64,000 nucleotides of DNA. Source: Parasutterella excrementihominis (GTDB lineage: Bacteria; Bacillota_I; Bacilli_A; RFN20; CAG-826). Below are positions 35,089 to 54,266 of this stretch, piece after piece (position 1 is the stretch's first letter; each line of letters starts with the position of its first letter). The notes under the pieces were generated by a model, which saw only the letters and a list, made by a program, of their open reading frames with translations, searched no databases and was not told the origin of the DNA. Position numbers and translations under genes: made by a program. Location: contig CAVECL010000004.1 in the NCBI GenBank assembly GCA_963614595.1, positions 2,268-66,267 on the forward strand, in the 5' to 3' direction.

Positions 35089-35160
35089 AGGAATGCCCTT
35101 TCTAAAAGAGATATAAATGCTTGGCAAAATGATAATCTAGGGAAAAGGGTTTTCCCATAA

Positions 35161-35181
35161 TTAATTAAAGGGGTTAATTAA
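35161..35181. promoter_or_regulatory. 21-bp AT-rich palindrome TTAATTAA-AGGGG-TTAATTAA in a divergent promoter region
   Basis: Lies between the esterase start (35088, minus strand) and the kinase start (35242, plus strand). The same architecture recurs at 38854, 47591 and 50889. Confidence 0.55.
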
Positions 35182-35241
35182 TCGCGTCATTGTCCTTTTC
35201 GCCCTTTCTTCGCCCAATGCTCATAAGGTAGAATCTCCTTC

Positions 35242-37131
35242 ATGAAGCCTGGACTCAAAAAAGAAGCTACGTCCCTCGCGGTTTTTCTTTTGTCATTCCT
35301 CGCTATTTTCATTACTTGCTTCGCCCTTGTGAAAAGCGACGCGAACATGAATGGCAAGCAGGGGCTGCCAGACCTCGCGGATTGCAGCCTCGATTTCAAT
35401 GGATGCGAATTCGGAGAGACTTACGTCAAGCAACACATGAAGGGCGAATACGAGTTTTTCTATAACAAGTGGATCGTAGAAGAAAATTACACGGGGGAGC
35501 CGGATTGCCGCGTGAACGTGCCCCATCATTACAAAAACACGGTTCTGAATGGCGAAAGATTAAGCAATGAGGGCTATTCCTCCTACAGGATGTATATAAA
35601 AGGGCTCCCTGTCGGGACGAAAATCTGGTTCATCAACAACAACTTCGTCGGGGGTTTCTACGCCTATATCAACTCAGAGCTTGTCGTGAAATATGGGACG
35701 AGGGCGAAAACGGGAACCTGCCTTAGCAACGGGGGAGACGACATGACCTTGGAATACATCGTCAAAGACAGCAATCCTTTGACGGTTGTTTTCGAGGTAT
35801 CCTCGAGCTATCAAGGCGGGCTCACTTCTCCGGCTAGATTAGCCATCAACACTCTTGGAAGGAACCCGACCTCTCAATATCTCACGAATAACATCGGCTT
35901 CGTGATGATGGGCCTCATCCTTGGCTTGCTCGCCTTCTCTTTCGTGATCAATTTAGGGGCCGCAAAGCGGGATTTCTCCTTCTCGCTTGTCATGGGGGTC
36001 ATCACATTGATGAGCTTTTTCTCCATCGACGTCTATTGGAGGGTGCTCTCCATCTTCAGAACGAACACGTATAACTCCATCATCTTCCTTGATTTGCTGA
36101 TCGCGACGGTTTTGCCTTTTGCTTTGTACTATCACCTTGCGAAGAATCAAAAGATAAAGCATAACTGGGCCTATCCGATTGCCTTTGGGGCTATATCCAC
36201 TTTATCGGTGATTTTCTATTTCGTGCTTATGGGAACCTTCTACCAAGTGATTCCTTTGATTTTTTCCTTGCTTAGCCTCGCTTTGCTTTTGATCCCTTTG
36301 ACGAAAGGGATGTTCGAAGGGGCGAGGATTAATCTCGCCTTCATCTTCATGGTGTTCTCCTTGCTTACTTACTACGCGATCACTTTTTTCGATCTAGAGA
36401 ACATCATGATTGCGGGGACGGAGCAAAGCATCTCTTACGTGATGCTTCCGATCATCGTGATCATCATCGTCCTTTATCGCTTATCGACCGCGACCAAGAC
36501 GAAGCGTTATATCAAAGCCTTGGAGAAAGAGCAGAAGGCTCTGCAGATGAAAGCGGAAGCCTTAACCGAACAAATCAAGCCCCATTATGTCTTCAATTGC
36601 CTCTCTTCCATCCAAGGCGCATATCAAGAAGACAGCAAGAAAGGCGAGAGGATGCTGACAATGTTCTCCAAGCACTTAAGGGACAGCCTAGACGTCTCTT
36701 CTGACCTCGTCCCCTTTGAAAAGGAAGTGGAGCGCATCCTCCGTTACGCGGAACTGGAAAACATGAGGAAAGAGAAGAAAGTCGATTTGCTCCTTAACCT
36801 CGAAAGCACGGATTTTTCTCTCCCTCCCTTAAGCTTGGAACCCTTTATCGAGAACGCCTTCAAGCACGGCAAACTTGAGAAAATAAACGATGGGTATGTG
36901 TCTGTTTCAAGTTTTGAGGAAGAGAAAGACCACCTAATTCTAATCGAGGACAACGGGGTTGGATTCGACGTGAATCAGGTGAAGCCTAGCTCCGTGGGCA
37001 TAAAGAACGCGAAGGAAAGGCTGAAAATCCTCTGCGGAGCTGAGGTCCAAATAACCTCTAGGCCAAACAAGGGCACCACAGTGGAGATAAGAATCCCAAA
37101 GGAGAGTGAAGATGAACGCGATCGTGTTTGA
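35242..37131 (+). CDS. 7TMR-DISM sensor histidine kinase (LytS/YesM-type His_kinase + HATPase_c)
   Basis: N-terminal extracytoplasmic domain followed by 7 TM segments. Phosphoacceptor region IKPHYVFNCLSSIQ and a C-terminal ATPase (IEDNGVGF, GIKNAKERL). Confidence 0.85.
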   Translation: MKPGLKKEATSLAVFLLSFLAIFITCFALVKSDANMNGKQGLPDLADCSLDFNGCEFGETYVKQHMKGEYEFFYNKWIVEENYTGEPDCRVNVPHHYKNTVLNGERLSNEGYSSYRMYIKGLPVGTKIWFINNNFVGGFYAYINSELVVKYGTRAKTGTCLSNGGDDMTLEYIVKDSNPLTVVFEVSSSYQGGLTSPARLAINTLGRNPTSQYLTNNIGFVMMGLILGLLAFSFVINLGAAKRDFSFSLVMGVITLMSFFSIDVYWRVLSIFRTNTYNSIIFLDLLIATVLPFALYYHLAKNQKIKHNWAYPIAFGAISTLSVIFYFVLMGTFYQVIPLIFSLLSLALLLIPLTKGMFEGARINLAFIFMVFSLLTYYAITFFDLENIMIAGTEQSISYVMLPIIVIIIVLYRLSTATKTKRYIKALEKEQKALQMKAEALTEQIKPHYVFNCLSSIQGAYQEDSKKGERMLTMFSKHLRDSLDVSSDLVPFEKEVERILRYAELENMRKEKKVDLLLNLESTDFSLPPLSLEPFIENAFKHGKLEKINDGYVSVSSFEEEKDHLILIEDNGVGFDVNQVKPSSVGIKNAKERLKILCGAEVQITSRPNKGTTVEIRIPKESEDERDRV

Positions 37132-37882
37132 TGATGAAAAGGAATCCTTGCTTGTGTTTTCCTCGCACGCAATCGACGTGCCGAACCTGAGCCTGAACGT
37201 CTTCTCTTCCCGCTACGAAGAGGCGCTTGTTTATGCGCGTTCCCATAAAGTGGACGCGGCTTTCCTCGACATTGTGATGCCTGGGATGGATGGGGTTAGC
37301 TTCGCGAAGTCCTTGATTAAGATCTCCCCGAACATCAAGATTGTTTTCATCACGGGCTACGCCCAAGATGAGGAGGCGATCCGAAAAGAGATCGGGCCTA
37401 ATTTCTTTGCTTTCTGTTACAAGCCATATGAGGAGGGAACCATCCACGAGATCTTCGCGAAGATGATGAGCGAAGATAAACCCCTCATCGTATTTAAGGC
37501 ATTCCCTAGGTTCGATATGTACGTGAATGGGATTCTCGTGGATTTCGAAAGATCCAAGGCAAAAGAGCTTCTCGCTTTGCTTGTGGATCACCGCGGGGGA
37601 GAGGTGACGATCGAAGAGGCCGCCACCAAGCTTTGGATGGATAAGGATTATGAGCTGTCCGCAAGGCTTTACCGCGATGCGACGAGCCGGCTCAGAATGA
37701 AGTTTAGCGAATACGGGATTTCTTATTTGGCGGATTTCGGCAGGGGGAGGGCTTCTCTAAATTGCGAATACGCCTCCTGTGATTACTGGGACTATCTTGA
37801 TGGGGATTCTTCTTTGTTCAAAGGCGAATACATGAGGCCTTACGAATGGGCTGTGGAGCAAGAGGACTACATGAGCAGGTAA
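37112..37882 (+). CDS. response regulator with SARP/BTAD-like winged-helix output domain
   Basis: REC domain (DDE...DAAFLDIVMPGMDG...K). The C-terminus (FDMYVNGILVDFERSKAKELLALLVDHRGGEVTIEEAATKLW) is SARP-like. GGAGAG RBS lies 5 nt before the ATG at 37112, which overlaps the kinase 3' end. Confidence 0.75.
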   Translation: MNAIVFDDEKESLLVFSSHAIDVPNLSLNVFSSRYEEALVYARSHKVDAAFLDIVMPGMDGVSFAKSLIKISPNIKIVFITGYAQDEEAIRKEIGPNFFAFCYKPYEEGTIHEIFAKMMSEDKPLIVFKAFPRFDMYVNGILVDFERSKAKELLALLVDHRGGEVTIEEAATKLWMDKDYELSARLYRDATSRLRMKFSEYGISYLADFGRGRASLNCEYASCDYWDYLDGDSSLFKGEYMRPYEWAVEQEDYMSR

Positions 37883-38290
37883 CTGGCCTTTAAAAGAAGG
37901 CCATGATGACTATCGAAGAGGAATGAAGACACACTAAGGAGCCTGCGATGAAATTCATTGATGGGCTCTGCGGAAAGCTACGCCTCCGTCTTCGATGGAC
38001 GCTTTCTTCGGGGCGCATATGGCCAAGATGGCTGAGAGGACTTATAAAACCTTCTAACATCCAACCCTATAACCCCGGATTCAATTGGCGCTTGCCTCTC
38101 TGCTTTCAATGTTGGTTTCCAATCCTTTTAATTGGCAAATGGGGAGAAAAGGGAAAATAAATAGGAGGTTCGCATAGATTCACATTTTTATCTTCTTAGA
38201 GCCAACCGGCTAGGTAGATTCGGAGGCATTTTTACGAGTTAAAAATCAATAAACAATACAGGCGTCTTATAAATGGTCACTTTGGACTAA

Positions 38291-38318
38291 TTGCTTGAAT
38301 GGTCTCCCTCCCTATAAT
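38291..38318 (+). promoter_or_regulatory. promoter TTGCTT-16-TATAAT for the Hpt gene
   Basis: -35 at 38291-38296 and -10 at 38313-38318. GGAG RBS at 38337-38340 before the ATG at 38347. Confidence 0.5.
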
Positions 38319-38346
38319 GCCAATGCCTAGAAAACGTGGAGACGGC

Positions 38347-38700
38347 ATGATCGATTTGAAAAAGTTCTACAACAGCGTTGGCTCCGATGCGGATGATGTC
38401 ATTAGCCGTTTAGGAGGAAACGCCCGTCTTGCGAAGCGGTTCGTCAAGAGGTTCTTGGATGACAAATGCTTTTCGGATTTGCTCCTTTCCTTTGAGAAAG
38501 ACGATGCCCAGTCTGCTTTGAGGGCCGCCCATACCTTAAAAGGGGTTGCGGCGAACCTTGGAATGCAGACTTTGTTCGTCAAAACCTCTGAAGTCACCGA
38601 GCTTTTGGACGCAGGGAAACTTGAAGAATGCAAGAAAGCCTTGCCCGCTCTGCAAGAGGAATATTTCCGGGTTCGCTCTCTTGTCGAAGACCTTGTCTGA
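38347..38700 (+). CDS. stand-alone Hpt (histidine phosphotransfer) domain protein
   Basis: Canonical Hpt motif AAHTLKGVAANLGM in an ~117-aa helical protein. Confidence 0.7.
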   Translation: MIDLKKFYNSVGSDADDVISRLGGNARLAKRFVKRFLDDKCFSDLLLSFEKDDAQSALRAAHTLKGVAANLGMQTLFVKTSEVTELLDAGKLEECKKALPALQEEYFRVRSLVEDLV

Positions 38701-38849
38701 ACTTTTGCTCTAATCGCGAATTTCCAGCTTTTCCTGAGACGCGTTTTCGTTAGCTTAAATAGGCCATTATCGTCTGCTAAGCCACAAAAAATGTCTTTCT
38801 GCCCATTGGACCATCGCGGAGGAAGGCATCATGAGTTTGTTTGCGCTAG

Positions 38850-38907
38850 GTAGTTTTTTAAGCGAGTTAAAAAACTACTAGGAAAGCGCTTCCAAATTGC
38901 TTATAAT
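38850..38907 (+). promoter_or_regulatory. transporter promoter region: 12-bp-arm AT-rich palindrome, cre-like site and -10 TATAAT
   Basis: GTAGTTTTTTAA (38850-38861), GCGAG, TTAAAAAACTAC (38867-38878). Then GGAAAGCGCTTCCA (38881-38894; 13/14 match to the cre consensus TGNAANCGNTTNCA) and TATAAT (38902-38907). Confidence 0.55.
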
Positions 38908-38934
38908 CATTCCAAACGAAAGGCTTTTTCAAAT

Positions 38935-40446
38935 ATGGAAGAAAAAACAAAAATGGAAACTAGGACCGACCGTTCTTACATTTCCAAAACTTCCGGGTTG
39001 CAAGGAAAAGACTATATCGGCTATGCCCTAGGCGATTTTGCCGGTTGCCTTTGCTTCTCTACGGTCACGACGATCCTGCAGAAGTACTACACGGACATCT
39101 TGGGCTTGACCCCGTTGTTCATCATGATCATGTTCATCGTCGCCCGTGTGTGGGACGCGATCAACGACCCGATCATGGGGCGCATTGTTGATATCAGGCG
39201 CCCGGGGAAAGATGGCCGTTATCGCCCTTGGATGAAGTGGGTGGCCATTCCCCTTTGCCTTGCCACCATCCTGATGTTCTTGCCCTCTAGCGAAGCGGCT
39301 CAGTGGATGGGCGGTGTTGGGACAATGGTTTATGCCACGATCACCTACATCATCTTCGGCATGGTCTACACCGTGCATCAGATTCCTTACGGTTCGCTCG
39401 CCAGCGTCGTTACAACTGACGCCAAGGAAAGAAACAAGTTATCCGTCTTCCGCTCCGCAGGCGCGGCGCTTGGATCGATGCCGATTCTCATCCTTACCAT
39501 GTTCTATTCCAAAAAGCTCTGGAATGAAGATGGCACAGCGAAGCTAGGCGAAAACGGAAAGCAGCTCACCCAGGTTCAATATCTTCCGATTATCATCGGC
39601 GTTTCCGTGCTTGCCGTTGTCGGCTGCGTCCTTCTTTTCATCGCTTATCGCAATAACAAAGAAAGGGTGGTCGCCAAACCCGCTGAGCACAAGAAAGGCG
39701 AGACTTGGAAAATCGCTAAGAACCTCCTTAGGAACCACAACTTCGTCGCTATCTGCCTTGTGGGGCTTTTGCTCCTCGCCGCGCAGATGTTCACGCAGTC
39801 TTTCTACACCTATCTTTTCAACGATCTTTTCTCCGCGAACTGGATGAACCTCGCTTCTCAGGCGTGCTCTTATGGGCCAATGGTCGTGCTTATGTTCTTT
39901 GCGGGCAAACTTGTTAGGAAGTTCGGGAAGAAAGAAATCTGCGCCGTCGGGGGCATTGTTGCGGCGGTGCCTAACGTCATTCTTATCTTCTTAAAAGACG
40001 CGATTGTCGCCACCCCGATTCTCTTCTTGCCTTTCTGCCTCATTAGCGGCATCGGCATTTCGATCATCACCCTTGAGATGTGGGCGTTAGCCACTGATGC
40101 GATTGATGATGTCGAGGTTAAAACGGGTCTCCGAAATGACGGGTCCTCTTATTCCACCTTCATGTTCTTCCGCAAGATGGGCCAGGTTCTCGCCGCCATC
40201 TGCGTGAACGTCGCCCTTATTGCCATGAACTACAAATCCGGCAGCGGAGAGGTCCAAACCGCGGAAACGCTCAACACCATGTATTATATGGCCACCGCCA
40301 TCCCGGCCGGACTATTCGCCCTCCTTGGTCTCACGCTTATCTTCCTTTATGGCCTTAGCAAAAAGAAAACCGATGAGCTGCAGGACAGAAAAGAAGAGCT
40401 TCTTGCGAAGCAGGTTGAGAACAACGAAGTCACGATCGGCGGATAA
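38935..40446 (+). CDS. GPH-family glycoside:cation symporter (YihO/MelB-like)
   Basis: 12-TM protein with the GPH signature RVWDAINDPIMGRIVD. Confidence 0.85.
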   Translation: MEEKTKMETRTDRSYISKTSGLQGKDYIGYALGDFAGCLCFSTVTTILQKYYTDILGLTPLFIMIMFIVARVWDAINDPIMGRIVDIRRPGKDGRYRPWMKWVAIPLCLATILMFLPSSEAAQWMGGVGTMVYATITYIIFGMVYTVHQIPYGSLASVVTTDAKERNKLSVFRSAGAALGSMPILILTMFYSKKLWNEDGTAKLGENGKQLTQVQYLPIIIGVSVLAVVGCVLLFIAYRNNKERVVAKPAEHKKGETWKIAKNLLRNHNFVAICLVGLLLLAAQMFTQSFYTYLFNDLFSANWMNLASQACSYGPMVVLMFFAGKLVRKFGKKEICAVGGIVAAVPNVILIFLKDAIVATPILFLPFCLISGIGISIITLEMWALATDAIDDVEVKTGLRNDGSSYSTFMFFRKMGQVLAAICVNVALIAMNYKSGSGEVQTAETLNTMYYMATAIPAGLFALLGLTLIFLYGLSKKKTDELQDRKEELLAKQVENNEVTIGG

Positions 40447-40449
40447 AAC

Positions 40450-41418
40450 CTATTCCCCGAAAATCTTATTAAAGGCGCCTAGCGCGCCTTTAATTTCGTT
40501 GATTTTCTGATAGTCCTCATAGACGCAGATCTTGGTTAAATCGAAGTCCGGCTTCAAAGAAATGATTTGCTTTTTCAACAGGGCGATTATATCTTCGGAA
40601 GTGAGCAAAGCGCCGGAAAGAATGATTTTTTGCAGGGATAATAAGGAATCCGCGTTGCAAAGAGCGAAGGAAAGAACGGTTAGAATCCCATCGAGCTTCG
40701 CTTTGTTTTTTTGAATCAAAGCAAGGCCTTCTTTCTCTTCGACTTCCCTCCCCAGGATGGAAGAATAGGAAATCGTGTCTTCTACGGTCTTATCTCGATA
40801 GAACGTGTGGCCAAGCTCGGAGGTGGCTCCAAGAGGCTTGCCGTTGGTGTAAATCGAAGAACCGAGACCAGGGCCGTATTTCACAAGGAGGAAGTTCTTG
40901 TCCTCGTGATGGGATAAAGAATAGATGGAGGCAAGGCAATCTACGTTGTTGAAGACGAAGTAGGGAACGCCGCTTCCTTGAACCTCATGGAACAATCCTG
41001 GATAACGCGTCTTAAAAGACTCTAGGCTCGCCTCGCCGCGAATGGTTATGCCGATGCCCAGCATCCTTCTTTTGGGTTTGGAGAGAATGTCGCCTAAAGA
41101 AGTTGCAGCATCGTCGGAACTGAAAATCGGTTCCCCGGAGAAATCCACGAGATTGAGGTAGGAATGATGCTTTCTCACGTCTATCGACAGGAAAGAGCCA
41201 TAATTGGCGTTAAGGGTGACGCGCAGTTCTCTTCTGCCGACTTTTTGGCTGGTTTTGCTGCTGGTTTCCAAAACCAGGCCATCGTTGATCAAAGGCTTAA
41301 GGGCTAGAGTTAAAGCGGCGTTTGTCAAGGCGAGCTTCGACGCGAGCAAAGTCCTCGTGGAGCTTTTTTCCACGAGCAGGATGCGAATGATTGTTTTCTG
41401 CGTTTTCGTCAAAGCCAT
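40450..41418 (-). CDS. ROK/NagC-like transcriptional regulator
   Basis: N-terminal wHTH (TQKTIIRILLVEKSSTRTLLASKLALTNAALTLALKPL) followed by a sugar-kinase-like fold with ELGH. The usual Cys-rich zinc motif is not evident. The ATG at 41418 is preferred. Confidence 0.6.
   Translation of the reverse strand: MALTKTQKTIIRILLVEKSSTRTLLASKLALTNAALTLALKPLINDGLVLETSSKTSQKVGRRELRVTLNANYGSFLSIDVRKHHSYLNLVDFSGEPIFSSDDAATSLGDILSKPKRRMLGIGITIRGEASLESFKTRYPGLFHEVQGSGVPYFVFNNVDCLASIYSLSHHEDKNFLLVKYGPGLGSSIYTNGKPLGATSELGHTFYRDKTVEDTISYSSILGREVEEKEGLALIQKNKAKLDGILTVLSFALCNADSLLSLQKIILSGALLTSEDIIALLKKQIISLKPDFDLTKICVYEDYQKINEIKGALGAFNKIFGE
40469..40500 (+). terminator. intrinsic terminator for the symporter gene, embedded in the 3' end of the convergent ROK gene
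   Basis: TTAAAGGCGC (40469-40478) / GCGCCTTTAA (40484-40493) with a 5-nt loop, then TTTCGTT. Confidence 0.6.
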
Positions 41419-41422
41419 AATT

Positions 41423-42139
41423 TTATAGGAATAGTGTAACCCCTGAAAGAAGCAAGAGGACACAGGTAATCTTCATGAAAACGTTTTTTGATAGCTTGGG
41501 GACGACGAAGGAGCCGATGACCAAAGAAAGGATGGTGGCTCCCGCCCCAAAGCCGAGAAGCATCCAAACATGAGCTGTAAATAAGCCGTCCATCATCTCA
41601 GTGGCGAAGAGCATCGAGTTCAAAATGATCCAAAGCAGCGATAAGGTAGATCTGAATTTGCTCTTATCCTTAAGTTCGTGTAGGGCGTAGATAACAACAA
41701 AGGGGCCGCCTGAAACATATAGTTTATGCATGATTCCGCCCAGGAAAAGGAAGATGATCATTAGCCACTTCGGAAGATTCACTTTCTCGAAATCCACGAA
41801 GAAGAAAGCAACCGCAATCACGATTACAAGCGAGGCGTATACGTATAAAAGGATCTTCGTGTCCATCGGGATGAGCTCAATCGCGAACCCCGTCCCAAAC
41901 CCCGCTCCAACGGATAAAAGAATAATTAAAAAATGTTTCCAATCAATGTCCTTGAAATGGGCGGCTACGATATAAACGCAGACAACCATGGCAACGAGAT
42001 TCAAAACTGGTTTAGCGGTGTTTGCCCCCTCCAATTTGAGAGAAAGAGGCATCGCCAAAACCGTTCCGGCGAAGCCGGTGATGGTTTGAATGATGTTGCT
42101 GATGAAGATTATCAGGATGAAAAGAATGTCTTGGACCAC
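41423..42139 (-). CDS. TauE/SafE (TSUP) family anion exporter
   Basis: About 7-8 TM segments, 238 aa, N-terminal ITGFAGTVLAMP motif. The GTG start overlaps the upstream stop (TAGTG). Confidence 0.75.
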   Translation of the reverse strand: MVQDILFILIIFISNIIQTITGFAGTVLAMPLSLKLEGANTAKPVLNLVAMVVCVYIVAAHFKDIDWKHFLIILLSVGAGFGTGFAIELIPMDTKILLYVYASLVIVIAVAFFFVDFEKVNLPKWLMIIFLFLGGIMHKLYVSGGPFVVIYALHELKDKSKFRSTLSLLWIILNSMLFATEMMDGLFTAHVWMLLGFGAGATILSLVIGSFVVPKLSKNVFMKITCVLLLLSGVTLFL

Positions 42140-42753
42140 TAGAAATCAACTCTTATGTTTTCTCCGACTATGCCGACGTAAGCCCCGTTTTTTGCTTGAA
42201 CGGCGTCTTTGTGGGCGTAAAGCCATTTATTGACCTTCCAAAGTTTTTTGTCTTTGGGGATCTCCGCTAAGTCCATATTCGTTCCGTCTCCCAAGATGAT
42301 GAGGCAGCGAAATCCATCCTTGCTTAGTTTGCATGGAGAGAAATGAAAGACGTAGGGATATAAACAAACGGCCTGCCCTTTCTTCAGCAAGAAGGCCTCG
42401 ACGTCTTTGGAATCAAGCACGCCATCGCAAACATCATCTTGATTCGCCAAAAGCAAAACAAGATCGTCCCCGGCGACATCGACTTCTGGACAGGCGTGGT
42501 ATTCCATGCAATTAAGCAGGGAATTGAAGCCGTTGCAGTAGCCAACTTCAATTTCGCCAAATCCGTATATTTCCTCTTTGATCTCTGAAATTCCCCGCAA
42601 AACCTTCATGTTTTCATCACTGCGTACGTAAATATTGCCTTCTTGCGGCATCTTCGCGCGCCCATGAAGATAAGAAACCATCTCGCTGGTGTCTAGATTC
42701 AAGACTTTGCCAAACTTATGGAAAAGGGGATCAGTAACGCTTCGTATTTTCAT
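42139..42753 (-). CDS. DUF4867-like (cupin-type) protein
   Basis: About 204 aa. The N-terminal pattern IRSVTDPLFHKFGKVL...PQEGNIYV matches my recollection of DUF4867. GGGAG RBS lies before the ATG at 42753. Confidence 0.5.
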   Translation of the reverse strand: MKIRSVTDPLFHKFGKVLNLDTSEMVSYLHGRAKMPQEGNIYVRSDENMKVLRGISEIKEEIYGFGEIEVGYCNGFNSLLNCMEYHACPEVDVAGDDLVLLLANQDDVCDGVLDSKDVEAFLLKKGQAVCLYPYVFHFSPCKLSKDGFRCLIILGDGTNMDLAEIPKDKKLWKVNKWLYAHKDAVQAKNGAYVGIVGENIRVDF

Positions 42754-44062
42754 CAAGGATCTCCCAGTTCATAAGTCTGGCTAGATAAGTCATGGCTTTC
42801 TTGTATTGCACGTAGCCCATGATGACGTGATGGGCGACGCCGGTATAGGCAACCGTGTCGACGACCTCATTGATGGGGCGATTAAACACGACTTTGGCAT
42901 AGGTTCCTGAGAGGTCTTTGGTCATTGGAAAAGCTTCGCCTTCTTCATAGTAAATTCTTGTTCTCCCCCTGGCGGTGTCGATGCGGAGGATGGACATCTC
43001 GCCTTCTTTGAGGACGAAGTCCGCGGTGACTCCCTTCCCGCCGGCGAAATAAGTTTCCAAAGATCTGTTGCAACGCTTGTCCCAAAGATTGCACGGGGCT
43101 ACGCCATCATGCCAAAGGAGCGCGTAGTTCTCTTCGTAGTTGACTTGGGAAAGGTCGGCCATGAAGGGGGTGGGTTCGCCTGCTGCTTTGACGGCGACCA
43201 TGCTTAAGGCCGCCTCGATGTCGCCTTCGCAGGCAAGAAGAATCCCTCTTGATTGCAAGACGGACATCATCGCGCAGGGAGAGACCCCGTAGTTTTTCGC
43301 AAATTCTGGCCAGCAGCGGATGGCAACCACGTCGAGGCCCTTTTCCTTCATGAATTTTTCGGCGACCACGATGAGACGGGAAACCTGTTTGACTTGATAA
43401 TCATTGAGCTTCTTGCAGTCGAAAGTCGCGCGGAGATTCTTTTCTTCTTTCGCGCTTTCTTCCTCGTCTGCCTCTCCGCCGAAGAAATCGCTTAATTCAT
43501 AATGGCTGATGAGGATTCCCAGCTCTTTGTATAGATGAAGCTCATCCACCCCGACGTTATAGAAGCCTTGAGCGTGGAATCCGATGAGACCGACGCTCGA
43601 ATTCTCCAAAGCGGTTTTCATCTTGATGGCTTTGACCCAGTCATGATCGACGTCGTCTCCGACGTAGACGATGTAGTCGTCCACCCCGCCCTTATAGAGA
43701 TTTGAAGCGTTCAAGTTAACTCCGCAGACCGCGTTAAGTCGAATCTTCCCCCCATCGTATGGGAGCTCGTTATATCCCTGGAGGAGGAAAGGCTTCTTGA
43801 CGATATCGTGGAGGATCAATGCAAGCCCGCCTAAATGGAAGGTCGCGGAGACGACGACGAGGGCATCCACGTGTTTTTCGACGAAATAGTTGCCGGCTTC
43901 TTTAGCCTCGTTGGCTTCGATGACCATTGTGGGGTAGTAGACCCAGTCGATGGAATCATCTTCCATCACTTTCTTGCACCTTTCTTGATAGAGTTTGAAG
44001 GCGGTTTCGTAATCAAATGTTTTGCGGACTAGGCAAACTAGGCCGATGATGGGCTTTCTCAT
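42731..44062 (-). CDS. L-fucose/L-arabinose isomerase-like sugar isomerase
   Basis: About 443 aa. The N-terminal Rossmann-like block GLVCLVRKTFD...VDALVVVSATFHLGG is typical of the fucose-isomerase-like family. 1-nt gap to the upstream gene. Confidence 0.55.
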   Translation of the reverse strand: MRKPIIGLVCLVRKTFDYETAFKLYQERCKKVMEDDSIDWVYYPTMVIEANEAKEAGNYFVEKHVDALVVVSATFHLGGLALILHDIVKKPFLLQGYNELPYDGGKIRLNAVCGVNLNASNLYKGGVDDYIVYVGDDVDHDWVKAIKMKTALENSSVGLIGFHAQGFYNVGVDELHLYKELGILISHYELSDFFGGEADEEESAKEEKNLRATFDCKKLNDYQVKQVSRLIVVAEKFMKEKGLDVVAIRCWPEFAKNYGVSPCAMMSVLQSRGILLACEGDIEAALSMVAVKAAGEPTPFMADLSQVNYEENYALLWHDGVAPCNLWDKRCNRSLETYFAGGKGVTADFVLKEGEMSILRIDTARGRTRIYYEEGEAFPMTKDLSGTYAKVVFNRPINEVVDTVAYTGVAHHVIMGYVQYKKAMTYLARLMNWEILDENTKRY

Positions 44063-44063
44063 G

Positions 44064-44900
44064 TTATTTGACCTCATTGACGATTTTGTAGGAAGCGGAG
44101 AAGTCCTCCTTTGCAAGGCCTTCTTTCATCGCTTCTTCGTAGATAGAGACAATACGCGTTAAGGCAGGGCATTCTTTTCCGGCGTCATTCGCCATTTCTC
44201 TGGCGAAATGAACGTCTTTGTTCATGTTTTCCACCGAGAATGCGGTGGGGTAGGTGTTGGAAATAATGTTTTTGGCTTTGGTGTCCAAATAGAAGCACTG
44301 GGCTCCGCCATAGCCTAACGCGGTGATGACTTCTTCCTGATTGAGGCCAAGGGCTTTTGCCAGGCCAAGGATTTCATTGACCCCGTTTTGGATCTCTCCG
44401 ACTAAGCCGTTGTGGAGGATCTTCATCTGAAGTCCTGCGCCGTGGCCGCCCATGTAGATGATGTTCTTGCCCATGCAAGAAAGAACGGGTTTTATGTTTT
44501 CGTAGATTTCTTTTTTGCCGCCCACGTAGATGCCTAGTTCGCCTTTAACGGCGGCAGGCTGAGACTTCACGACGGGGCAATCCAGGATTTCGACGCCCGT
44601 TCCTTCCAATTCCTTTGCGACCTTTTGGTTCGTTGATGGGGAGATCGTGGACATGTCAATCCAAATCTGACCTTTGCGGAAGTGGGGTTTCAATTCGGAA
44701 AAGAGCGAGAGCATATGCTCGTTTTTTGGAACCATGGAGATAATGACGTCCGCGAAGTCTGCGCATTCTTTATAGGATGAGGCAAAGGGGAATGGGGTGT
44801 CTTTTTTTATGACATCATAGCCGAGTAAGGGATATTCTTTGGCGACGTTATTGGCCATAGGCATCCCCATGATGCCAAGGCCGATAAAAGCGATTCTCAT
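44064..44900 (-). CDS. NAD(P)-dependent 3-hydroxyisobutyrate dehydrogenase-family reductase (YihU-like)
   Basis: MRIAFIGLGIMGMPMA dinucleotide-binding motif and HIBADH-type length and C-terminal domain. Confidence 0.85.
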   Translation of the reverse strand: MRIAFIGLGIMGMPMANNVAKEYPLLGYDVIKKDTPFPFASSYKECADFADVIISMVPKNEHMLSLFSELKPHFRKGQIWIDMSTISPSTNQKVAKELEGTGVEILDCPVVKSQPAAVKGELGIYVGGKKEIYENIKPVLSCMGKNIIYMGGHGAGLQMKILHNGLVGEIQNGVNEILGLAKALGLNQEEVITALGYGGAQCFYLDTKAKNIISNTYPTAFSVENMNKDVHFAREMANDAGKECPALTRIVSIYEEAMKEGLAKEDFSASYKIVNEVK

Positions 44901-44901
44901 C

Positions 44902-45582
44902 TTAATTTCCTTTCGTGTGGTCCCAGGCATCCTGGAAAACGCCTAAGCCATAAGTGGTAAAGGGGTGGTTGAAGCTGTCTTCGTAGACGGCTAGACCAGC
45001 GGTGACGATATCGGCGCCTAGCTCAGCGGCATCGGCGATCTGCTTGCCGTTTCTTACCGCGGCCACGATGATCTCCGTTTCGTATCCTTTTTCTTTATAG
45101 ATGTTCACAAGCTGGGAGATGTATGGGTAAGTGTCTTCTCCGTTGTTTTCTTTCCATCCGACGAAAGGAGAAACGAATTTGGCGTTGATTCGCCCGGCTT
45201 GGATGGCTTGAGAGGGAGAGAAGACCAAGGTGACGTTTGTGCGGATGCCAATTTTCTCGAGCTGATAGGCGGCTTTGACTCCTTCGGTGGTGCAGGGGAT
45301 TTTGATCGCGAAGTTCTCGGAAATCGCAGAGACCCTCCTTGCCTCTTCCATCATGTCCTCGGCTTTGTTCAAGTGGGGGTTGATCTCAACTGAGACCGGG
45401 AAGACATCGATGCCTTCTAAATGGTTCTCCTTAATCCAATTGGCAATGTCGGTAATCGCGGTTAAAAAAGGTTTGCCCGAAGCCATGATGTGCTTGGGAT
45501 TCGTGGTGACCCCGTCGATTTTGTAGTTCTTATAAGCAAAGTCGATTTCATTTAATTTGGCTGAATCAAGAAAATATTTCAT
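44902..45582 (-). CDS. FSA/TalC-type transaldolase-family enzyme
   Basis: MKYFLDSAKLNEI...GVTTNPKHI N-terminus, Schiff-base Lys context FAIKIPCT, and VSPFVGW. About 226 aa. AGGAGG RBS and ATGA overlap with the upstream stop. Confidence 0.85.
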   Translation of the reverse strand: MKYFLDSAKLNEIDFAYKNYKIDGVTTNPKHIMASGKPFLTAITDIANWIKENHLEGIDVFPVSVEINPHLNKAEDMMEEARRVSAISENFAIKIPCTTEGVKAAYQLEKIGIRTNVTLVFSPSQAIQAGRINAKFVSPFVGWKENNGEDTYPYISQLVNIYKEKGYETEIIVAAVRNGKQIADAAELGADIVTAGLAVYEDSFNHPFTTYGLGVFQDAWDHTKGN

Positions 45583-47564
45583 TGTAAGTTTCCTCCTTTT
45601 TCTTGGCTTAGATTTTTGAATAACTCCGCAAAAGTCGAGCCTTTCTTGTAAAAAGCAATAGGCAGGCCTATTGGCGAATCGATTTCTCCTTCCCCTGAAG
45701 GAACCTCTATGTTCGTGAAGAACTGCACCCATTCTCCTTTCGGAAGATAGTAACGATGCCTTGTTTCAGCGGGTCTTAGCACAGGGGAAACTAGAACGTC
45801 TGGGCCGAACATATATTCCCTCTTGTTCACATAGGCTTCTTGCTCATCGAAATAGAAGAAGAGGGGCGCGATCATCGGAGTGTTGTTTTTGTAATACTCT
45901 TCGTAAAGATGCTCGCGATAAGGTTTCAGTCTAACGAAGATGTCCGTGTTTTTGATGAATTCAGGATAGGTGTTGGGATTATCGTATTGGACATTGTTCT
46001 TGGGCTGATTGCCTTCGTGGGTGCGGTAGATCGGCGAGAAGATGTTCATCTCCGCCCAACGGTTGAATAGCTCCGCGTCTCTTTTCATCGGGTACAAGGC
46101 CGTGATGGTCGTGTAGCCTCCGATGTCGCTATGAATGACTCCCGCCCCAGAACAGGCTAAAGAGATGCAGGCTGGGATAACGCTTGCTAAGCCATATTCG
46201 TCTGAGTAATCGACGTGCTGGTCGCCATTCCACATGGAATTCGTGAATTGGAAGGTATGGCCATAAGCCGCTCTAGAGAAGTAGAAGATCTCGTCTTCCT
46301 TCCCTTCTTCCTTGACTGCGTCAAATGAGCACTTCGCCCACATGGTCGGCCAGCGGTTATGGAGTTTCTCGCTCTCTCCGCCATAGCAAACCGAATCGGT
46401 TGGCAAATATTCTCCGAAGTCTGCCATCCAACCTGAGAGGCCGTATTCGATCATGTTCTTCTTGATGATGTCGACGTACCATGCGCGGGCGGTTGGATTG
46501 GTGAGATCCACGATTCCGGCGTTAAAAGTGGTGGATTTGATGTGATAGACGGAGCCGTCTTTATGGCGGATCAGGAAGCCTTTCTTTTTAGCTTCTAGAT
46601 ACATCGGGGCTCCTTCCTTTAAGAAGGTGTTGATGTAGCCAAGAAAACGCACGCCCTCGGAATTCAGTTTCTTGATGATCTCTTTTAAGTTAGGATAAAG
46701 CTTCTCGTCGGCTTTCCAGTTCCAATAGACCTGATAGCCGAAGCTCGTCACGTGATTTCCGCACCAGTCCTGGCACCAAATAGCCGCGATTTTCAGTCCT
46801 TTTTGCTTGGCTTCCTCATATTTCTTGAGCAAAACCTCGCTGCCGCCCTGGATTGCCAGAATGACCCCGTCATTGACCCAGGAAGGCACTTTTGGCTGAA
46901 GCCCAACGAGTTTAGAGACCTCTTGAGATAGACCAAGCATGGAATCCGACGCGATCAGCGAAATCGATTGAGGGATCTGCCTGAATTTGATAAGCAGCTC
47001 ATCCTTTTTGAAGGAAAGAAAGCCATATGTGTCTTCGTGGCAATAAATCGCATAGCCTTTGGAGGACATGAACGACGGCGCGGAGCAATAAGTCTGATGG
47101 TCCTTATACGGGGATTCATGATCCGGCTGAGGGCCATGAAGCCTTTCCCTTAATTGCTTCTTGGCTATTTTCATCACCTGCTGATGCTCGCTGACCCAGA
47201 TGGGGACGTCTTTCCCTTTCAAATCAACGGTGGTGTATTGTTCGCCACAGCCATAGATATGCTCATCTTCAAACGTTTTGAAGCGGAGGGTGAAGCGGTT
47301 GTAGCCCGGATCGACATGGAAATGGAATTTTATCCAGGGGTCTTTGTCGACGATTATCTCTGCCTGAACTTTACCGTCGGTAAAGATGTAGCGCTTCCCG
47401 TCCTGGAAAGAGAAAACCAGCTTATGACGGTCGGTTATATGGTCTTTCGTCTTGAAAGAGCCCCTTGTCATCTTATAGCTTGCCTTGCCTTTGCCAATCA
47501 CCATATAGCAAGAGCCGTCGGTTAGCTGCCGCAAAAAATAGTCGTATAGTTCTTCTTTGCTCAC
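45579..47564 (-). CDS. yihQ: YihQ-family GH31 (sulfoquinovosidase-like) glycosidase
   Basis: GWMADFGEYLPTD, WNGDQHVDY, HSDIGGYTT and RTHEGN blocks match E. coli YihQ as I recall it. GTG start with an AAAGGAGGG RBS. Confidence 0.8.
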   Translation of the reverse strand: MSKEELYDYFLRQLTDGSCYMVIGKGKASYKMTRGSFKTKDHITDRHKLVFSFQDGKRYIFTDGKVQAEIIVDKDPWIKFHFHVDPGYNRFTLRFKTFEDEHIYGCGEQYTTVDLKGKDVPIWVSEHQQVMKIAKKQLRERLHGPQPDHESPYKDHQTYCSAPSFMSSKGYAIYCHEDTYGFLSFKKDELLIKFRQIPQSISLIASDSMLGLSQEVSKLVGLQPKVPSWVNDGVILAIQGGSEVLLKKYEEAKQKGLKIAAIWCQDWCGNHVTSFGYQVYWNWKADEKLYPNLKEIIKKLNSEGVRFLGYINTFLKEGAPMYLEAKKKGFLIRHKDGSVYHIKSTTFNAGIVDLTNPTARAWYVDIIKKNMIEYGLSGWMADFGEYLPTDSVCYGGESEKLHNRWPTMWAKCSFDAVKEEGKEDEIFYFSRAAYGHTFQFTNSMWNGDQHVDYSDEYGLASVIPACISLACSGAGVIHSDIGGYTTITALYPMKRDAELFNRWAEMNIFSPIYRTHEGNQPKNNVQYDNPNTYPEFIKNTDIFVRLKPYREHLYEEYYKNNTPMIAPLFFYFDEQEAYVNKREYMFGPDVLVSPVLRPAETRHRYYLPKGEWVQFFTNIEVPSGEGEIDSPIGLPIAFYKKGSTFAELFKNLSQEKGGNLQ

Positions 47565-47585
47565 GCGTTTCCCTCCTTTGTTTTC

Positions 47586-47638
47586 CTTAATTAATTAAGT
47601 GACTTAAAAATTATAAAGGCAAACTCTTCTCGTTTCAA
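47586..47638 (-). promoter_or_regulatory. promoter TTGAAA-17-TATAAT of the yihQ operon with an AT-rich palindromic operator
   Basis: On the minus strand, -35 is at 47633-47638 and -10 at 47610-47615. TTAATTAA-GTGAC-TTAAAAAT (47591-47611) overlaps the -10 and TSS. CTTAATTAATTAAG (47586-47599) is a perfect 14-bp palindrome. Confidence 0.6.
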
Positions 47639-47749
47639 CATGAGTGGTAGAAAAATACGTAGCTTAACCTATGAAAAGGCCGGTAATTGTTAGTAAAAAT
47701 GGCGTAAAACCTAGAGATGATTTGGAATTGCGCCGTTTTTATTTGTGAC

Positions 47750-48391
47750 TTATTCGATACCGAATAGGTATTTTCGATAAAGCTTTTCCGTCTTTTCTTT
47801 GCCTATGTTTTTGACGAAGACGTCGGTTGAGGCGCCGCCATGCTTAAGCAAGCCATTCACGTAAACGGCTTGGAGGGCTTTCTTCTCTTCCGGATTTATG
47901 CCTTTCGCTTCTTTGATGATCTTGCAGAACTCGTTTAGATAAGCCTCGATGGTTTCGCCGAACAAGACTTTATCTTTTTTGGATTTGTTCGCGGTGGAGA
48001 CGCTTAGGCGGATTGGGTCATACCATGCGGGCTTCGCCTGGTAGGCTGGAACGTCTTTCAGTTTTTCTTTGATCGCCTGAAGGGAAGGATAGTCGGTTTT
48101 CTCTTTTAAGGTGTCGTAGCACTCAATTATGACCGTCTCGTTCTTCATTACTTCGATCGCGTCGTAGCTGAATAATGGGACGTCTTTGGTGAAAACCGTA
48201 AGCATAATCGCGTCCGTCTTCATAAGGCCCAGCATTGCCTTGCCTTTGAGAATCGATAGACGCCCTATTCCTTTTACGTCATAACAGACAACGTTGAACT
48301 TCATCGGTCCGACTTTCATTTTGGCGAATTCGCCGATATCGAGTTTGCTTAGCTCGAAATATTTGCCAAAGATGTTTTCAATGGTTTCCAT
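47750..48391 (-). CDS. hypothetical cytoplasmic protein
   Basis: 213-aa ORF with coding-like composition. There is only a faint resemblance (LTVFTKDVPLFSYDAIEV...ECYDT) to ferredoxin-dependent bilin reductase folds. Confidence 0.45.
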   Translation of the reverse strand: METIENIFGKYFELSKLDIGEFAKMKVGPMKFNVVCYDVKGIGRLSILKGKAMLGLMKTDAIMLTVFTKDVPLFSYDAIEVMKNETVIIECYDTLKEKTDYPSLQAIKEKLKDVPAYQAKPAWYDPIRLSVSTANKSKKDKVLFGETIEAYLNEFCKIIKEAKGINPEEKKALQAVYVNGLLKHGGASTDVFVKNIGKEKTEKLYRKYLFGIE

Positions 48392-48634
48392 AAATGGGTT
48401 TCCTTTGCGGTGAAAATATTAGGTCTTCTTATAAGCCAAAAGCAACCAAAGGCGATGAAACGGTTTGGGTGAAATTGTTGCCTAAATTTTTTTAGCCTAA
48501 AAATTTTTAGGCAACGAAAATCACCGCAAAAACTCATGATTTGTGGAGGCAATGCGGGACTTCGTAGGGATTCCACAGGATTTTCGAAATGCTTAAGGCA
48601 AATTTGTGTTGCTAGTATCTCCTTCCTAAAACTG

Positions 48635-48643
48635 TGTTAAAAT
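48635..48643 (+). promoter_or_regulatory. extended -10 TGTTAAAAT placed 7 nt before the ATG (leaderless candidate)
   Basis: TGnTAAAAT at 48635-48643 and ATG at 48651. No Shine-Dalgarno sequence lies between them. Confidence 0.4.
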
Positions 48644-48650
48644 CCGGGCC

Positions 48651-49172
48651 ATGGTTACCAAAGAAGAAGTGCGATTTTTGCACCTGTTATTTGCTTCCTG
48701 GATTGTTTTGATGGCTTTTGCCGTGGCGACGACCGTTCTTTCCATCGTAAATATTTGGCAAGCCAATTCGATGAACAACAACATCTTCGAATTGCTTTTC
48801 ATGGCGTTCCACATTATTTTGCTAGGCTTCCTGATCATGGTCACCTTAAACGCCTTCAAAAAAGGAAGTCATATCATCAGGTCCCTAACCTATGGAGCCT
48901 ATGAGGGGGCGAGCCTTTTCTACCGCGCTCTTTCTATCCTTATTTTAATAATAGGGATTGCCTTAACTGTATTCGGAATCCTTTTCTTGGCTCCCACGGG
49001 CATTCATGACTTTGGCTTCCCAATCACTTTGAAGTGGGCGATGGTAAATGCGGGGCTGACACTTGCAGTCCTGAGCCTTGCTTTCTTGCTGTTTCCGATT
49101 TTATTCGCGAAGAATCCTACTTTGACCAAGCAAAAAGAAAACGAACTTAATGAAGGGAAAAAACAAAGATGA
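48651..49172 (+). CDS. small 4-5 TM membrane protein, unknown function
   Basis: 173-aa hydrophobic ORF. Its stop overlaps the GH13 start (ATGA). Confidence 0.5.
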   Translation: MVTKEEVRFLHLLFASWIVLMAFAVATTVLSIVNIWQANSMNNNIFELLFMAFHIILLGFLIMVTLNAFKKGSHIIRSLTYGAYEGASLFYRALSILILIIGIALTVFGILFLAPTGIHDFGFPITLKWAMVNAGLTLAVLSLAFLLFPILFAKNPTLTKQKENELNEGKKQR

Positions 49173-50824
49173 AAAAGAAAGCTGCTTTACTAGGGATTAC
49201 CGCCTTATCCCTTGCCGCATTGACGGGATGCAAATCAGGGGCAGACACCGCCGCTTCCGGCAAAAACGCTGAGACGACGTCTATTTACGACCCTCTTGAT
49301 GATGACGAGATCTATTTGCAGAAGGATCCCGCGGACGATTACGTCTACGCGGATTCCAGCAATGAGGACGGGTCGATGAATTATGAGATTTTCGTTCGCT
49401 CATTCTACGATTCTAACGGCGATGGAATCGGTGATCTCAATGGCGTGAAAGCCAAACTCCCTTACATCGCCGACATGGGATATAAAACGATCTGGCTGAT
49501 GCCGATTTTCCCTAGCATGAGTTACCACGGCTATGACGTGACCGACTACTATAACGTCAACGATGATTACGGCACCCTCGAGGACTTCGACTCTTTAATA
49601 AGCGAAGCGAAAAAGCATAACATCGACATCATGCTCGACATGGTTTTGAACCATTGTTCTTTGCAAAACCCTTATTTCGCCGAGGCCTTCGCGGATTATA
49701 AAGCAGGCAAAACCGGCGAGGGCTCGAAGGCTGACTGGTTCAATTTCGGGTCCACGGGCGATCATGTCTATCAAGGCATTCGTTACGAATCCAAATTCGA
49801 TGCGAATATGCCGGACTTTAACCTAGATTCGGAAGGCGTCCGCGCCGAGATGGAAAACATTGTCAAATTCTGGATCGATCGCGGGGTAAAAGGATTCCGT
49901 CTCGATGCGGTGCTTTATTATTACTACCAAGTAACGAATAAAAACGTCGAATTCCTAAATTGGCTTGCGGACACTTGCCATAAATACGATCCTGATTTCT
50001 ATATGGTAGGGGAATGCTGGGCCTCAAGCGCCTTGCTGAACACGTATTTTTCCTCCAAATGCGATTCGTTCTTCGATTTCTCTTTGCCAAGCGGGGGAGA
50101 CAACGTCTGCATAAGCTACCTCAAAGGATATGGGCGAATCGAAAACGTCAGCGAGAACATCGAGAAGAACGAGACCGCCCGGAAGGAGAAGAACCCGGCT
50201 GCTTACACTTCTTATTTTTTGAGCAACCATGACATGGACCGCATCTCCAAGAACTTCACGGACGAGAATGCTTATAAATCAGCCTGTTCTTTCTATGCCT
50301 TGCTTCCCGGAGATGTCTACACCTATTACGGCGAGGAAATCGCCTTAAAAGGCACCCGAGGCACGAATCCGGATGACCAAAACGACGTAAAGCGCCGCTT
50401 GCCCATGATTTGGAGCAAAAACGATAAGACCGGCGAATGCGCCTTTCCGGATAAAAGCCGTCCAGATCTAGACACTACCGAGCAAGTCGAAGAGGGCGTG
50501 GAAGACCAGCGAAGCAAACCTTTTTCTCTTACAAACCATTACAAGATGATGATCCACATAAGGAACAAGTATTCTTGGATCAAACGCGCGACCTACAAAG
50601 ACCTTTCATCCGAGCTTAATACCAGCGAGTACTCGGTGATGGCTTATTCCTTGTCTTGCGGGGATGAGAAAATAATCGTCGTCCATAATTTTTCCAGCCA
50701 TAACGTGGAGGTCGCTTCTCCGGGAAGCGAAATCGTGGACCAAATCAACACGATGCATCGCATCCCGGAGCTGAGCGGAGGTAAGCTTCGCCTTGCCGCC
50801 CATAGCAGCGTAATTCTTAAGTAG
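49169..50824 (+). CDS. GH13 alpha-amylase-family lipoprotein
   Basis: Lipobox AALTGC. GH13 regions I-IV are present: DMVLNH, GFRLDAVLY, GECW, FLSNHD. Confidence 0.9.
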   Translation: MKKKAALLGITALSLAALTGCKSGADTAASGKNAETTSIYDPLDDDEIYLQKDPADDYVYADSSNEDGSMNYEIFVRSFYDSNGDGIGDLNGVKAKLPYIADMGYKTIWLMPIFPSMSYHGYDVTDYYNVNDDYGTLEDFDSLISEAKKHNIDIMLDMVLNHCSLQNPYFAEAFADYKAGKTGEGSKADWFNFGSTGDHVYQGIRYESKFDANMPDFNLDSEGVRAEMENIVKFWIDRGVKGFRLDAVLYYYYQVTNKNVEFLNWLADTCHKYDPDFYMVGECWASSALLNTYFSSKCDSFFDFSLPSGGDNVCISYLKGYGRIENVSENIEKNETARKEKNPAAYTSYFLSNHDMDRISKNFTDENAYKSACSFYALLPGDVYTYYGEEIALKGTRGTNPDDQNDVKRRLPMIWSKNDKTGECAFPDKSRPDLDTTEQVEEGVEDQRSKPFSLTNHYKMMIHIRNKYSWIKRATYKDLSSELNTSEYSVMAYSLSCGDEKIIVVHNFSSHNVEVASPGSEIVDQINTMHRIPELSGGKLRLAAHSSVILK

Positions 50825-50888
50825 CCATCTAATAAATTCGGATTTAGAACCATCTGAATGAGTTTTTTTCGGCGTTTTGAAACAACTG

Positions 50889-50909
50889 TTAATTAACTTC
50901 CTTAAAAAA
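50889..50909. promoter_or_regulatory. 21-bp AT-rich palindrome TTAATTAA-CTTCC-TTAAAAAA
   Basis: Lies in the intergenic region upstream of the SBP operon. Same architecture as the sites at 35161, 38854 and 47591. Confidence 0.5.
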
Positions 50910-54264: not shown

Positions 54265-54266
54265 TT

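Follow-up and report, generated by a model that had tools for sequence, protein, structure and literature searches.

NagC and Mlc of Escherichia coli, two regulators of the ROK family that control sugar uptake and catabolism, consist of a winged helix-turn-helix (HTH) and a sugar-kinase-like domain joined by a Gly-Arg linker, and their operators are AT-rich quasi-palindromes in which TT/AA at ±5,6 from the centre, within the AT-rich arms, are the sole invariant positions (PMC4288165). The linker Gly-Arg is conserved in almost all clusters of ROK regulators and has been implicated in operator recognition (PMC4288165). The present analysis concerns a 64,000-nucleotide stretch of DNA (the window, which is C4:2268-66267 of a 1.71-Mb, 61-contig genome, G000, deposited as Parasutterella excrementihominis), in which a 21-bp AT-rich palindrome recurs in four promoter regions and in which the last gene of a sulfoquinovose operon encodes a 322-amino-acid (aa) protein that is, by its profile and predicted fold, clearly a divergent ROK-family regulator. 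Taken as a whole, the observations are best explained if the palindromes are operators of this protein, which we consider quite probable. The system so predicted shares with NagC and Mlc the winged HTH, the sugar-kinase-like domain and the linker, the AT-rich operator with TT/AA at ±5,6 and the predicted control of sugar uptake and catabolism. It differs from them in that NagC and Mlc are about 406 aa long, have about 17% identity with the 322-aa protein in structural alignment and possess a zinc-cysteine motif that is missing here, in that the operator spans 21 bp, has TTAA as its core and keeps GTCAC at its centre, and in that the presumed effector is a sulfosugar, with no EIIB-type partner implied.

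Two further ROK proteins resemble the regulator more closely, each of them the local regulator of a sugar-utilisation locus. Lmo0178 of Listeria (PDB 5F7P/5F7Q/5F7R) is the best profile match (E 1.8e-15), with a TMq of 0.72-0.75 to its operator-bound form, and the MecR2/XylR-like protein 4IJA follows with a profile E of 3.9e-11 and a TMq of 0.75; the likeness to both is one of protein profile and fold, at about 18-20% identity, and the 322-aa protein is about 60-80 residues shorter. As regards the pathway, the sulfoquinovose yih genes of E. coli are repressed by the DeoR-family protein CsqR (YihW) (PMC10991401), and the sulfo-transaldolase (sulfo-TAL) cluster of Bacillus aryabhattai holds an annotated GntR-family gene (PMC7491151). 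Both are, like the gene considered here, local regulators encoded inside a sulfoquinovose catabolic cluster, but they belong to the DeoR and GntR families rather than to ROK and hence have other operators. Full-text literature searches on sulfoquinovose regulation turned up these two and no ROK-type sulfoquinovose regulator or operator, and the sulfoquinovose papers examined for one likewise make no mention of it.

The palindromes and their genomic background

The four 21-bp palindromes described from the sequence alone were each found with the reported letters and positions. They are given below with scores from a position weight matrix (PWM) based on 30 distinct sites, which was built from loci in other genomes.

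35161-35181: predicted operator 1, TTAATTAA-AGGGG-TTAATTAA, in the divergent intergenic region between the esterase-GH31 unit and the histidine kinase gene; 18.3 bits.
38854-38874: predicted operator 2, TTTTTTAA-GCGAG-TTAAAAAA, 5' of the GPH symporter gene; 29.9 bits.
47591-47611: predicted operator 3, TTAATTAA-GTGAC-TTAAAAAT, 5' of yihQ, with which the sulfoquinovose operon begins; 28.5 bits.
50889-50909: predicted operator 4, TTAATTAA-CTTCC-TTAAAAAA, 5' of the solute-binding-protein ABC operon; 24.3 bits.

The arms of operator 2 are perfect over 12 bp (38850-38878), and operator 3 reads ATTTTTAAGTCACTTAATTAA on the minus strand. The consensus 21-mer is TTTTTTAAGTCACTTAAAAAA, with the core TTAA-N5-TTAA, which is unvarying across the clade; matrix positions 5-6 (-6,-5) are T and positions 16-17 (+5,+6) are A with a frequency of 0.98 each. 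Since the centre is conserved as well as the arms, with G at position 9 and C at position 13 (usually GTCAC), the whole 21-mer is palindromic about its central base. Operator 1 has the lowest score of the set because its spacer, AGGGG, is off the consensus. The resemblance to NagC/Mlc operators proposed in the sequence-only reading is borne out at TT/AA at ±5,6, which the predicted operator and those of NagC and Mlc have in common (PMC4288165).

The four palindromes are non-random and lie far above chance. The genome has a GC content of 50%, and its intergenic DNA (182 kb, taken from a crude open-reading-frame (ORF) map, as are all gene maps used here) one of 45%. The pattern WWWWTTAA-N5-TTAAWWWW has six matches in 1.71 Mb, all six intergenic and four of them inside a 16-kb part of the window, against 0.05-0.25 expected in the intergenic DNA under Markov models of order 0-4. 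When the spacer between these arms was set to each other length from 0 to 12, the count was zero or one, except for N9 with three, and the reversed pattern used as a control had no match in the genome. At a PWM threshold of at least 18 bits there were eight matches in the genome and none in the reversed genome, with 0.25 expected genome-wide; seven of the eight are intergenic and score 18-30 bits, the next intergenic match scores 12, and the eighth is a coding match at 18.3 bits without TTAA cores. The idea that similar palindromes might be just as dense in any AT-rich intergenic DNA, which had been put forward together with a background-corrected PWM scan of the genome as the means of finding out, is rejected on the strength of the Markov expectations, the other spacers, the reversed pattern and the reversed-genome PWM scan.

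A related possibility is that the palindromes are not protein operators at all and represent chance AT-rich promoter DNA, UP elements or RNA hairpins, which we regard as extremely improbable. The arms are indeed A/T tracts resembling UP elements, and operators 1 and 2 can form hairpins of -5.3 and -12.9 kcal/mol, with z about -4. However, operators 3 and 4 fold no better than shuffled sequences (-1.3 and -0.5 kcal/mol), sites 1, 2 and 4 lie upstream of predicted promoters and would therefore not be transcribed, and an Rfam search gave no family match for the palindromes; an RNA hairpin or known RNA element was rejected on the folding of sites 3 and 4 and on the Rfam result. The excess over expectation with a strict spacer of 5, the conserved GTCAC centre and the absence of the motif from G006, a genome of the same genus considered below, likewise speak against a non-operator origin.

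A fifth palindrome, related to the four, had been placed at 38228-38246.

38228-38246: 19-bp palindrome ATTTTTACGAGTTAAAAAT (ATTTTTA-CGAGT-TAAAAAT), 5' of the Hpt gene; PWM below 8 bits.

It exists, and it shares CGAGTTAAAAA with operator 2, as had been stated; the description of it as having one base less does not hold, as at 19 bp it is two bases shorter, one in each arm. It was rejected as a fifth operator on account of its PWM score and because only its right arm, and not its left, is kept in G012 and L041. The region 38228-38290 upstream of the Hpt gene holds a block, GTTAAAAA..AA.AAAC..TA.A.G.GTC, with GGACTA and a TATAAT box after it, that is kept in both G012 and L041, and this conserved block may be the binding site of some other factor.

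Co-occurrence of the palindrome and the regulator gene

The motif and a reversed control were counted in 24 genomes of the same genus and 16 of the same order. The seven same-genus genomes with an orthologue of the regulator (G000, G019, G012, G001, G008, G010 and G011) contain 27 motif matches versus three for the control, whereas the 18 same-genus genomes without an orthologue contain 37 versus 44. Every genome with an orthologue has a palindrome at most 7 kb from the regulator gene. Motif matches in G002, a genome without the regulator, lie in or at coding regions, have no related genes and were taken as chance. Orthologues of the regulator are found in 41 of 401 sampled genomes of the order (about 10%) and in six of 70 genera.

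The genes concerned in the window are as follows.

40450-41418, minus strand: gene of the 322-aa regulator (ROK family), closing the sulfoquinovose operon.
41423-47564, minus strand: sulfo-transaldolase (sulfo-TAL/SFT) operon, in the same order in about 30 related loci.
38935-40446, plus strand: gene of a GPH-family glycoside:cation symporter (TIGR00792, 276 bits, above cutoff).

The operon encodes a YihQ-type GH31 sulfoquinovosidase (NF007746, 668 bits, above cutoff), a transaldolase/FSA-type protein (TIGR00875, 177 bits, below the cutoff of 246), a sulfoquinovose-isomerase-like protein (NF048012, 178 bits, E 3e-52, below the equivalog cutoff of 700), DUF4867 (SftX; PF16161, 214 bits), an NAD-dependent dehydrogenase resembling sulfolactaldehyde (SLA) reductase (NAD_binding_2/11) and a TauE exporter. 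All the components looked for in a sulfo-TAL/SFT cluster, namely YihQ-type GH31, transaldolase, isomerase, DUF4867, reductase and TauE, are present in one cluster, a make-up that agrees with the sulfo-TAL/SFT pathway of Firmicutes (PMC7491151, PMC11968277). The GPH gene is convergent toward the regulator gene and in the related loci always adjoins the operon; its product may import sulfoquinovose or sulfoquinovosyl glycerol.

Loci were taken from the genomes above, and 37 more came from a scan of 185,579 species genomes; among them the operon order yihQ-TAL-reductase-isomerase-DUF4867-(TauE)-ROK is kept, with one palindrome directly 5' of yihQ and another 5' of the GPH gene. Where at least 100 nt of upstream sequence was available, the PWM score was at least 15 bits in 23 of 23 yihQ and 26 of 26 GPH upstream regions, and in about 30 related loci, each with a homologue of the regulator at the end of its sulfo-transaldolase operon, the conservation of these two sites spans regulator identities of 34-87% and a locus GC of 27-53%. 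The related records, labelled Erysipelotrichaceae or Bacilli, come from rumen and gut metagenomes and represent uncultured Bacilli. Near-identical loci (L038-L066, a 'cleanbin' series of metagenome-assembled genomes) are titled Paludibacteraceae, Alistipes, Faecalibacterium, Slackia, Azospirillum and so on, names that are untrustworthy.

The pathway also occurs without the regulator. In G006 (L088, G006:C202:9000-28000), yihQ-TAL-reductase-isomerase-TauE and a divergent GPH gene are found with no ROK gene, and the yihQ/GPH intergenic region holds no palindrome, the best PWM score being -11.6. Beside this operon lie two genes of LytS-type kinases, a response regulator gene (36% identical to that of the window) and an alpha/beta hydrolase gene, and from this gene content it seems that the ROK regulator has here been swapped for a two-component system. 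The motif is likewise absent from L071-L073, whose ROK-like gene is only 22-30% identical. Together with the distribution of the esterase site described next, these loci link the palindrome to the ROK gene rather than to the pathway.

The units on either side of operator 1 are the following.

31547-35088, minus strand: carboxylesterase-family esterase and second GH31 glycosidase, a separate unit behind operator 1.
35242-37882: LytS-type kinase and response regulator, a two-component system; the block including the Hpt gene spans 35242-38700.

In many genomes the esterase and second GH31 genes form a single unit behind GPH and lack a separate site, and the esterase has its own operator only where the kinase/regulator/Hpt block splits it from GPH, that is, in G000, G019, G012 and L041. 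To judge from gene order, the block appears to have been inserted into, and to have split, an ancestral GPH-esterase-GH31 operon, and the restriction of the esterase's own site to loci with the insertion would explain operator 1, which most likely serves the esterase-GH31 unit.

This arrangement bears on an alternative in which the palindromes are bound by the response regulator of the adjacent LytS-type system (35242-37882), or by a global catabolite regulator, with the ROK gene merely a neighbour. Operator 1 does lie within the upstream region of the kinase, cre-like boxes are found on the same promoters, and co-occurrence is a correlation only. The kinase/regulator/Hpt block, however, is confined to G000, G012, G019 and L041, while most loci with two operators are without it, which marks the two-component system as a recent insertion and not the binder; G006, moreover, has related kinases and a response regulator by its sulfoquinovose operon and yet no palindrome, and the two-component system was rejected on these grounds. 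As to a global factor, it would not follow one accessory gene across the genomes of one genus, and the cre-like box is a distinct, GC-cored element that does not belong to the palindrome family. We consider it very unlikely that either factor is the binder. The proposal that the ROK regulator binds the palindromes is instead supported by the co-occurrence of gene and palindrome, by the ROK profile and predicted fold of the protein and by the operator geometry, and from these the 322-aa protein very probably binds them.

The regulator and its predicted action at promoters

The assignment of the 322-aa protein to the ROK family draws on its homologues and on its predicted structure. Scanned with Pfam at default thresholds, the protein itself had no domain called, whereas 35 of 37 aligned homologues match PF00480 (E<0.01; best E 1.6e-10), and many homologues carry a precomputed PF00480 match. 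Besides Lmo0178 and 4IJA, the family profile matches TM1224, a Vibrio ROK regulator and Mlc. The AlphaFold (AF2) model (pLDDT 91, pTM 0.88) has the two-lobed, sugar-kinase-like (ASKHA) ROK fold according to Foldseek, in which all of the top 50 PDB matches are ROK-family proteins, repressors as well as sugar kinases, with a TMq of 0.70-0.75 to the regulators 4IJA, 5F7Q, 2HOE, 1Z05 and 1Z6R; MecR2, operator-bound Lmo0178, TM1224 and Mlc are among the proteins matched. At the N-terminus, MarR-type HTH matches cover residues 2-62, and the model shows three helices and a wing, which together make up a winged HTH. Neither of the linker residues G61 and R62 varies in the two alignments, one of 8 and one of 37 sequences. 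Residues 182-204, GPGLGSSIYTNGKPLGATSELGH, represent the sugar-binding signature GxGxG...ExGH, where G182, G184, G186, E201 and G203 are invariant and H204 is invariant in the 8 orthologues and present in at least 90% of the 37 sequences; a strict PROSITE-like ROK signature pattern had no match in the protein.

The geometry of operator 3 points to the manner in which this protein could act.

47610-47638, minus strand: predicted sigma-70-type yihQ promoter TTGAAA-17-TATAAT, the best match (11/12) of a 16-kb scan.

The last 2 bp of its -10 box are the first 2 bp of operator 3, so that the overlap of this palindrome with the -10 box and transcription start of yihQ, previously noted in the sequence-only reading, is confirmed for the predicted promoter. 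The layout of -35 box, 17 nt, TATAA(T) and operator recurs in related loci, with the operator ending 12-34 nt 5' of the start codon. In the proposed mechanism, a dimer of the 322-aa protein would grip both AT-rich arms through its N-terminal winged HTH domains and, at yihQ, would cover roughly -8 to +13, that is, the transcription start together with the last part of the -10 box, thereby blocking RNA polymerase and repressing the whole sulfo-transaldolase operon. From this placement, the protein probably acts as a repressor at yihQ, and autoregulation is suggested because the regulator gene is the last gene of the operon so repressed. A sugar occupying the kinase-like domain would release the regulator, as with other ROK repressors; the chances that this inducer is a sulfosugar appear about even, sulfoquinovose, sulfoquinovosyl glycerol or sulfofructose being the likeliest. 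The same protein would also control the GPH symporter and the esterase-GH31 unit.

The remaining sites of the window are placed differently. A gap of 27 nt lies between the GPH operator and a conserved -10-like box, which puts the operator at about -60 to -40; nearly all GPH promoters have this spacing, as does the esterase promoter of the window, and their -35 boxes are poor (TAGGAA, TAGTAA). The gap is only 14 nt in a distant clade (L067, L068 and L070), whose GPH operator overlaps the -35 region. Operator 4 ends 25 nt before a promoter-like site, TTTACA-17-CAAAAT (50934-50962), and the operator of a second symporter encoded elsewhere in the genome ends about 37 nt before TTGTAG; the operator centres are near -50 for the esterase, -70 for the ABC importer and -85 for the second symporter. 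At such upstream sites the regulator could act by occluding UP-element-like tracts, by looping between sites or by activation.

Several points weigh against the palindromes being operators of a ROK repressor. Because the training sites of the PWM had been picked by the strict pattern, its scores are partly circular, and operators 1 and 4 depart from the conserved centre GTCAC. The co-occurrence would also be seen if a different factor were invariably passed on together with the ROK form of the locus. The PF00480 score of the window protein is 19.1 bits (E 0.001), against a gathering score of 22.9; the DxGxT ATP motif is absent from it, as is CxCGxxGCxE, which we take to be the ROK zinc-binding cysteine motif, only three cysteines being present (161, 254 and 298) and none of them in a CxC. 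Finally, simple occlusion leaves the upstream placement at the GPH, esterase, solute-binding-protein and second-symporter promoters (about -50, -50, -70 and -85) unexplained. The protein is also 60-80 residues shorter than typical ROK regulators, and the lack of a CxC among its three cysteines marks it as part of a zinc-less, shortened ROK branch. Operators 1 and 4 are probable members of the regulon, with less certainty than the other sites.

The upstream placement can be accommodated if the ROK protein is dual-acting, repressing at yihQ and at a glpA-like operon described below and, at the upstream-placed sites, either activating or repressing through looping or UP-element occlusion. NagC, itself of the ROK family, can both repress and activate. 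Dual action would further fit the exact 27-nt gap between operator and -10-like box at the esterase promoter and nearly every GPH promoter (operator at about -60 to -40, poor -35 boxes), as well as the sites 25 nt before the -35 box of the ABC importer and about 37 nt before the TTGTAG of the second symporter. On the other hand, the GPH operator of the distant clade overlaps the -35 box and thus has the position of a repressor site, the constant spacing has perhaps been inherited rather than selected, and a transporter activated only without inducer makes little physiological sense. Dual action thus strikes us as unlikely.

The GPH promoter carries a further element.

38881-38894: cre-like box GGAAAGCGCTTCCA in the gap from operator 2 to the -10 box, placed alike in most GPH promoters.

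GPH promoters of related loci have a cre-like GWAAGCGCTTWC box between the operator and the -10-like box, which takes the forms GGAAAGCGCTTCC, GTAAAGCGCTTAC or GTAATGCGCTTAC and has a fixed place in most of them (L041-L065). Cre-like boxes also lie 5' of the ABC importer (50991-50999 and 51015-51028) and in the promoter spacer of the second symporter (G000 C13, about 8395-8410). From the position of these boxes, the same promoters would seem to be under catabolite control as well. At the esterase promoter, a 17-bp palindrome, GGGAAAA-GGG-TTTTCCC (35140-35156), lies between operator 1 and the -10-like TATCAT of the esterase, in the spot equivalent to that of the cre-like box of the GPH promoter; most of it is preserved in G019 and half of it in G012.

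The predicted wider regulon

Several sugar loci had been proposed, from the sequence alone, to be linked in one regulon. Conserved sites support such a link and suggest that it reaches beyond the window, to three sites on other contigs, listed here with the ABC importer operon of the window.

C20:18079: 63 nt 5' of an operon; its first product is closest to glycerol-3-phosphate oxidase/GlpA models, at scores under their cutoffs.
C13:8460: 5' of a second GPH-type symporter adjoining glycosidase-like ORFs.
C33:5589-5609: TTTTTTAAACAACTTAAAAAG, 20.3 bits, 104 nt 5' of a gene for a 793-aa lipoprotein of unknown function.
51054-56339 of the window, plus strand: ABC sugar importer operon (solute-binding protein, two permeases and MalK-type ATPase), behind operator 4.

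In this species group the regulator would accordingly reach the glycerol-3-phosphate oxidoreductase operon, the second GPH symporter, the ABC sugar importer and, probably, the lipoprotein gene. The C20 and C13 sites are kept in G019 and G012. Upstream of the glpA-like operon the flanks have diverged and only the site and the promoter-like block that follows it are kept (G000, G019 and G012), so that, as judged from this alignment, the site is a true footprint. Operator 4, in comparison, is a weak footprint because the whole intergenic region is kept in G019, and the ABC importer is a candidate species-level addition to the regulon. The C33 lipoprotein gene is a possible extra member; its site is immediately followed by a cre-like TAAGCGCTTCC. 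A further sequence at C1:56498 (TTAATCATCTTAA) is orthologous to a strict site in G019 and yet scores -1.8 in G000, and it was not counted.

The presence of a glycerol operon in the regulon makes sense because sulfoquinovosidase frees glycerol from sulfoquinovosyl glycerol, and the cluster of E. rectale encodes a glycerol kinase for the use of glycerol so released (PMC11968277). The association of the esterase and second GH31 with the sulfoquinovose locus is conserved (L043, L048, L049, L055-L058, L061, L063, L065 and L070), where they are often co-transcribed with GPH behind its operator; the second GH31 best matches alpha-glucosidase/alpha-xylosidase models, below cutoffs, and the esterase has no obvious signal peptide. 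The sulfolipid-deacylating enzymes of aquatic bacteria are described as unidentified in a 2026 review (PMC13436972), and, from their place in the locus, the esterase and second GH31 are candidate deacylation enzymes for sulfoquinovosyl (di)acylglycerol.

Judged on conserved sites and gene content, the system probably pairs a ROK regulator with its operator; the specificity would be new and is probably for a sulfosugar, and the predicted regulon is unusually clean. A broader reading, put forward tentatively and at somewhat less than even confidence, is that the shortened, zinc-less ROK branch provides the first sulfosugar-sensing ROK regulator, whose regulon would comprise the sulfo-transaldolase operon, its importer, the esterase and second GH31 as sulfolipid deacylation candidates, and glycerol oxidation, with the AT-rich upstream operators doubling as UP elements. 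The regulon prediction is solid and brings no new principle. If it is true, a sensor and promoter pair for sulfosugars would be ready to use, the esterase and second GH31 would become guilt-by-association candidates for the missing sulfolipid deacylation step, with a link to glycerol use, and the sulfoquinovose regulons of uncultured gut and rumen Bacilli would be predictable straight from sequence.

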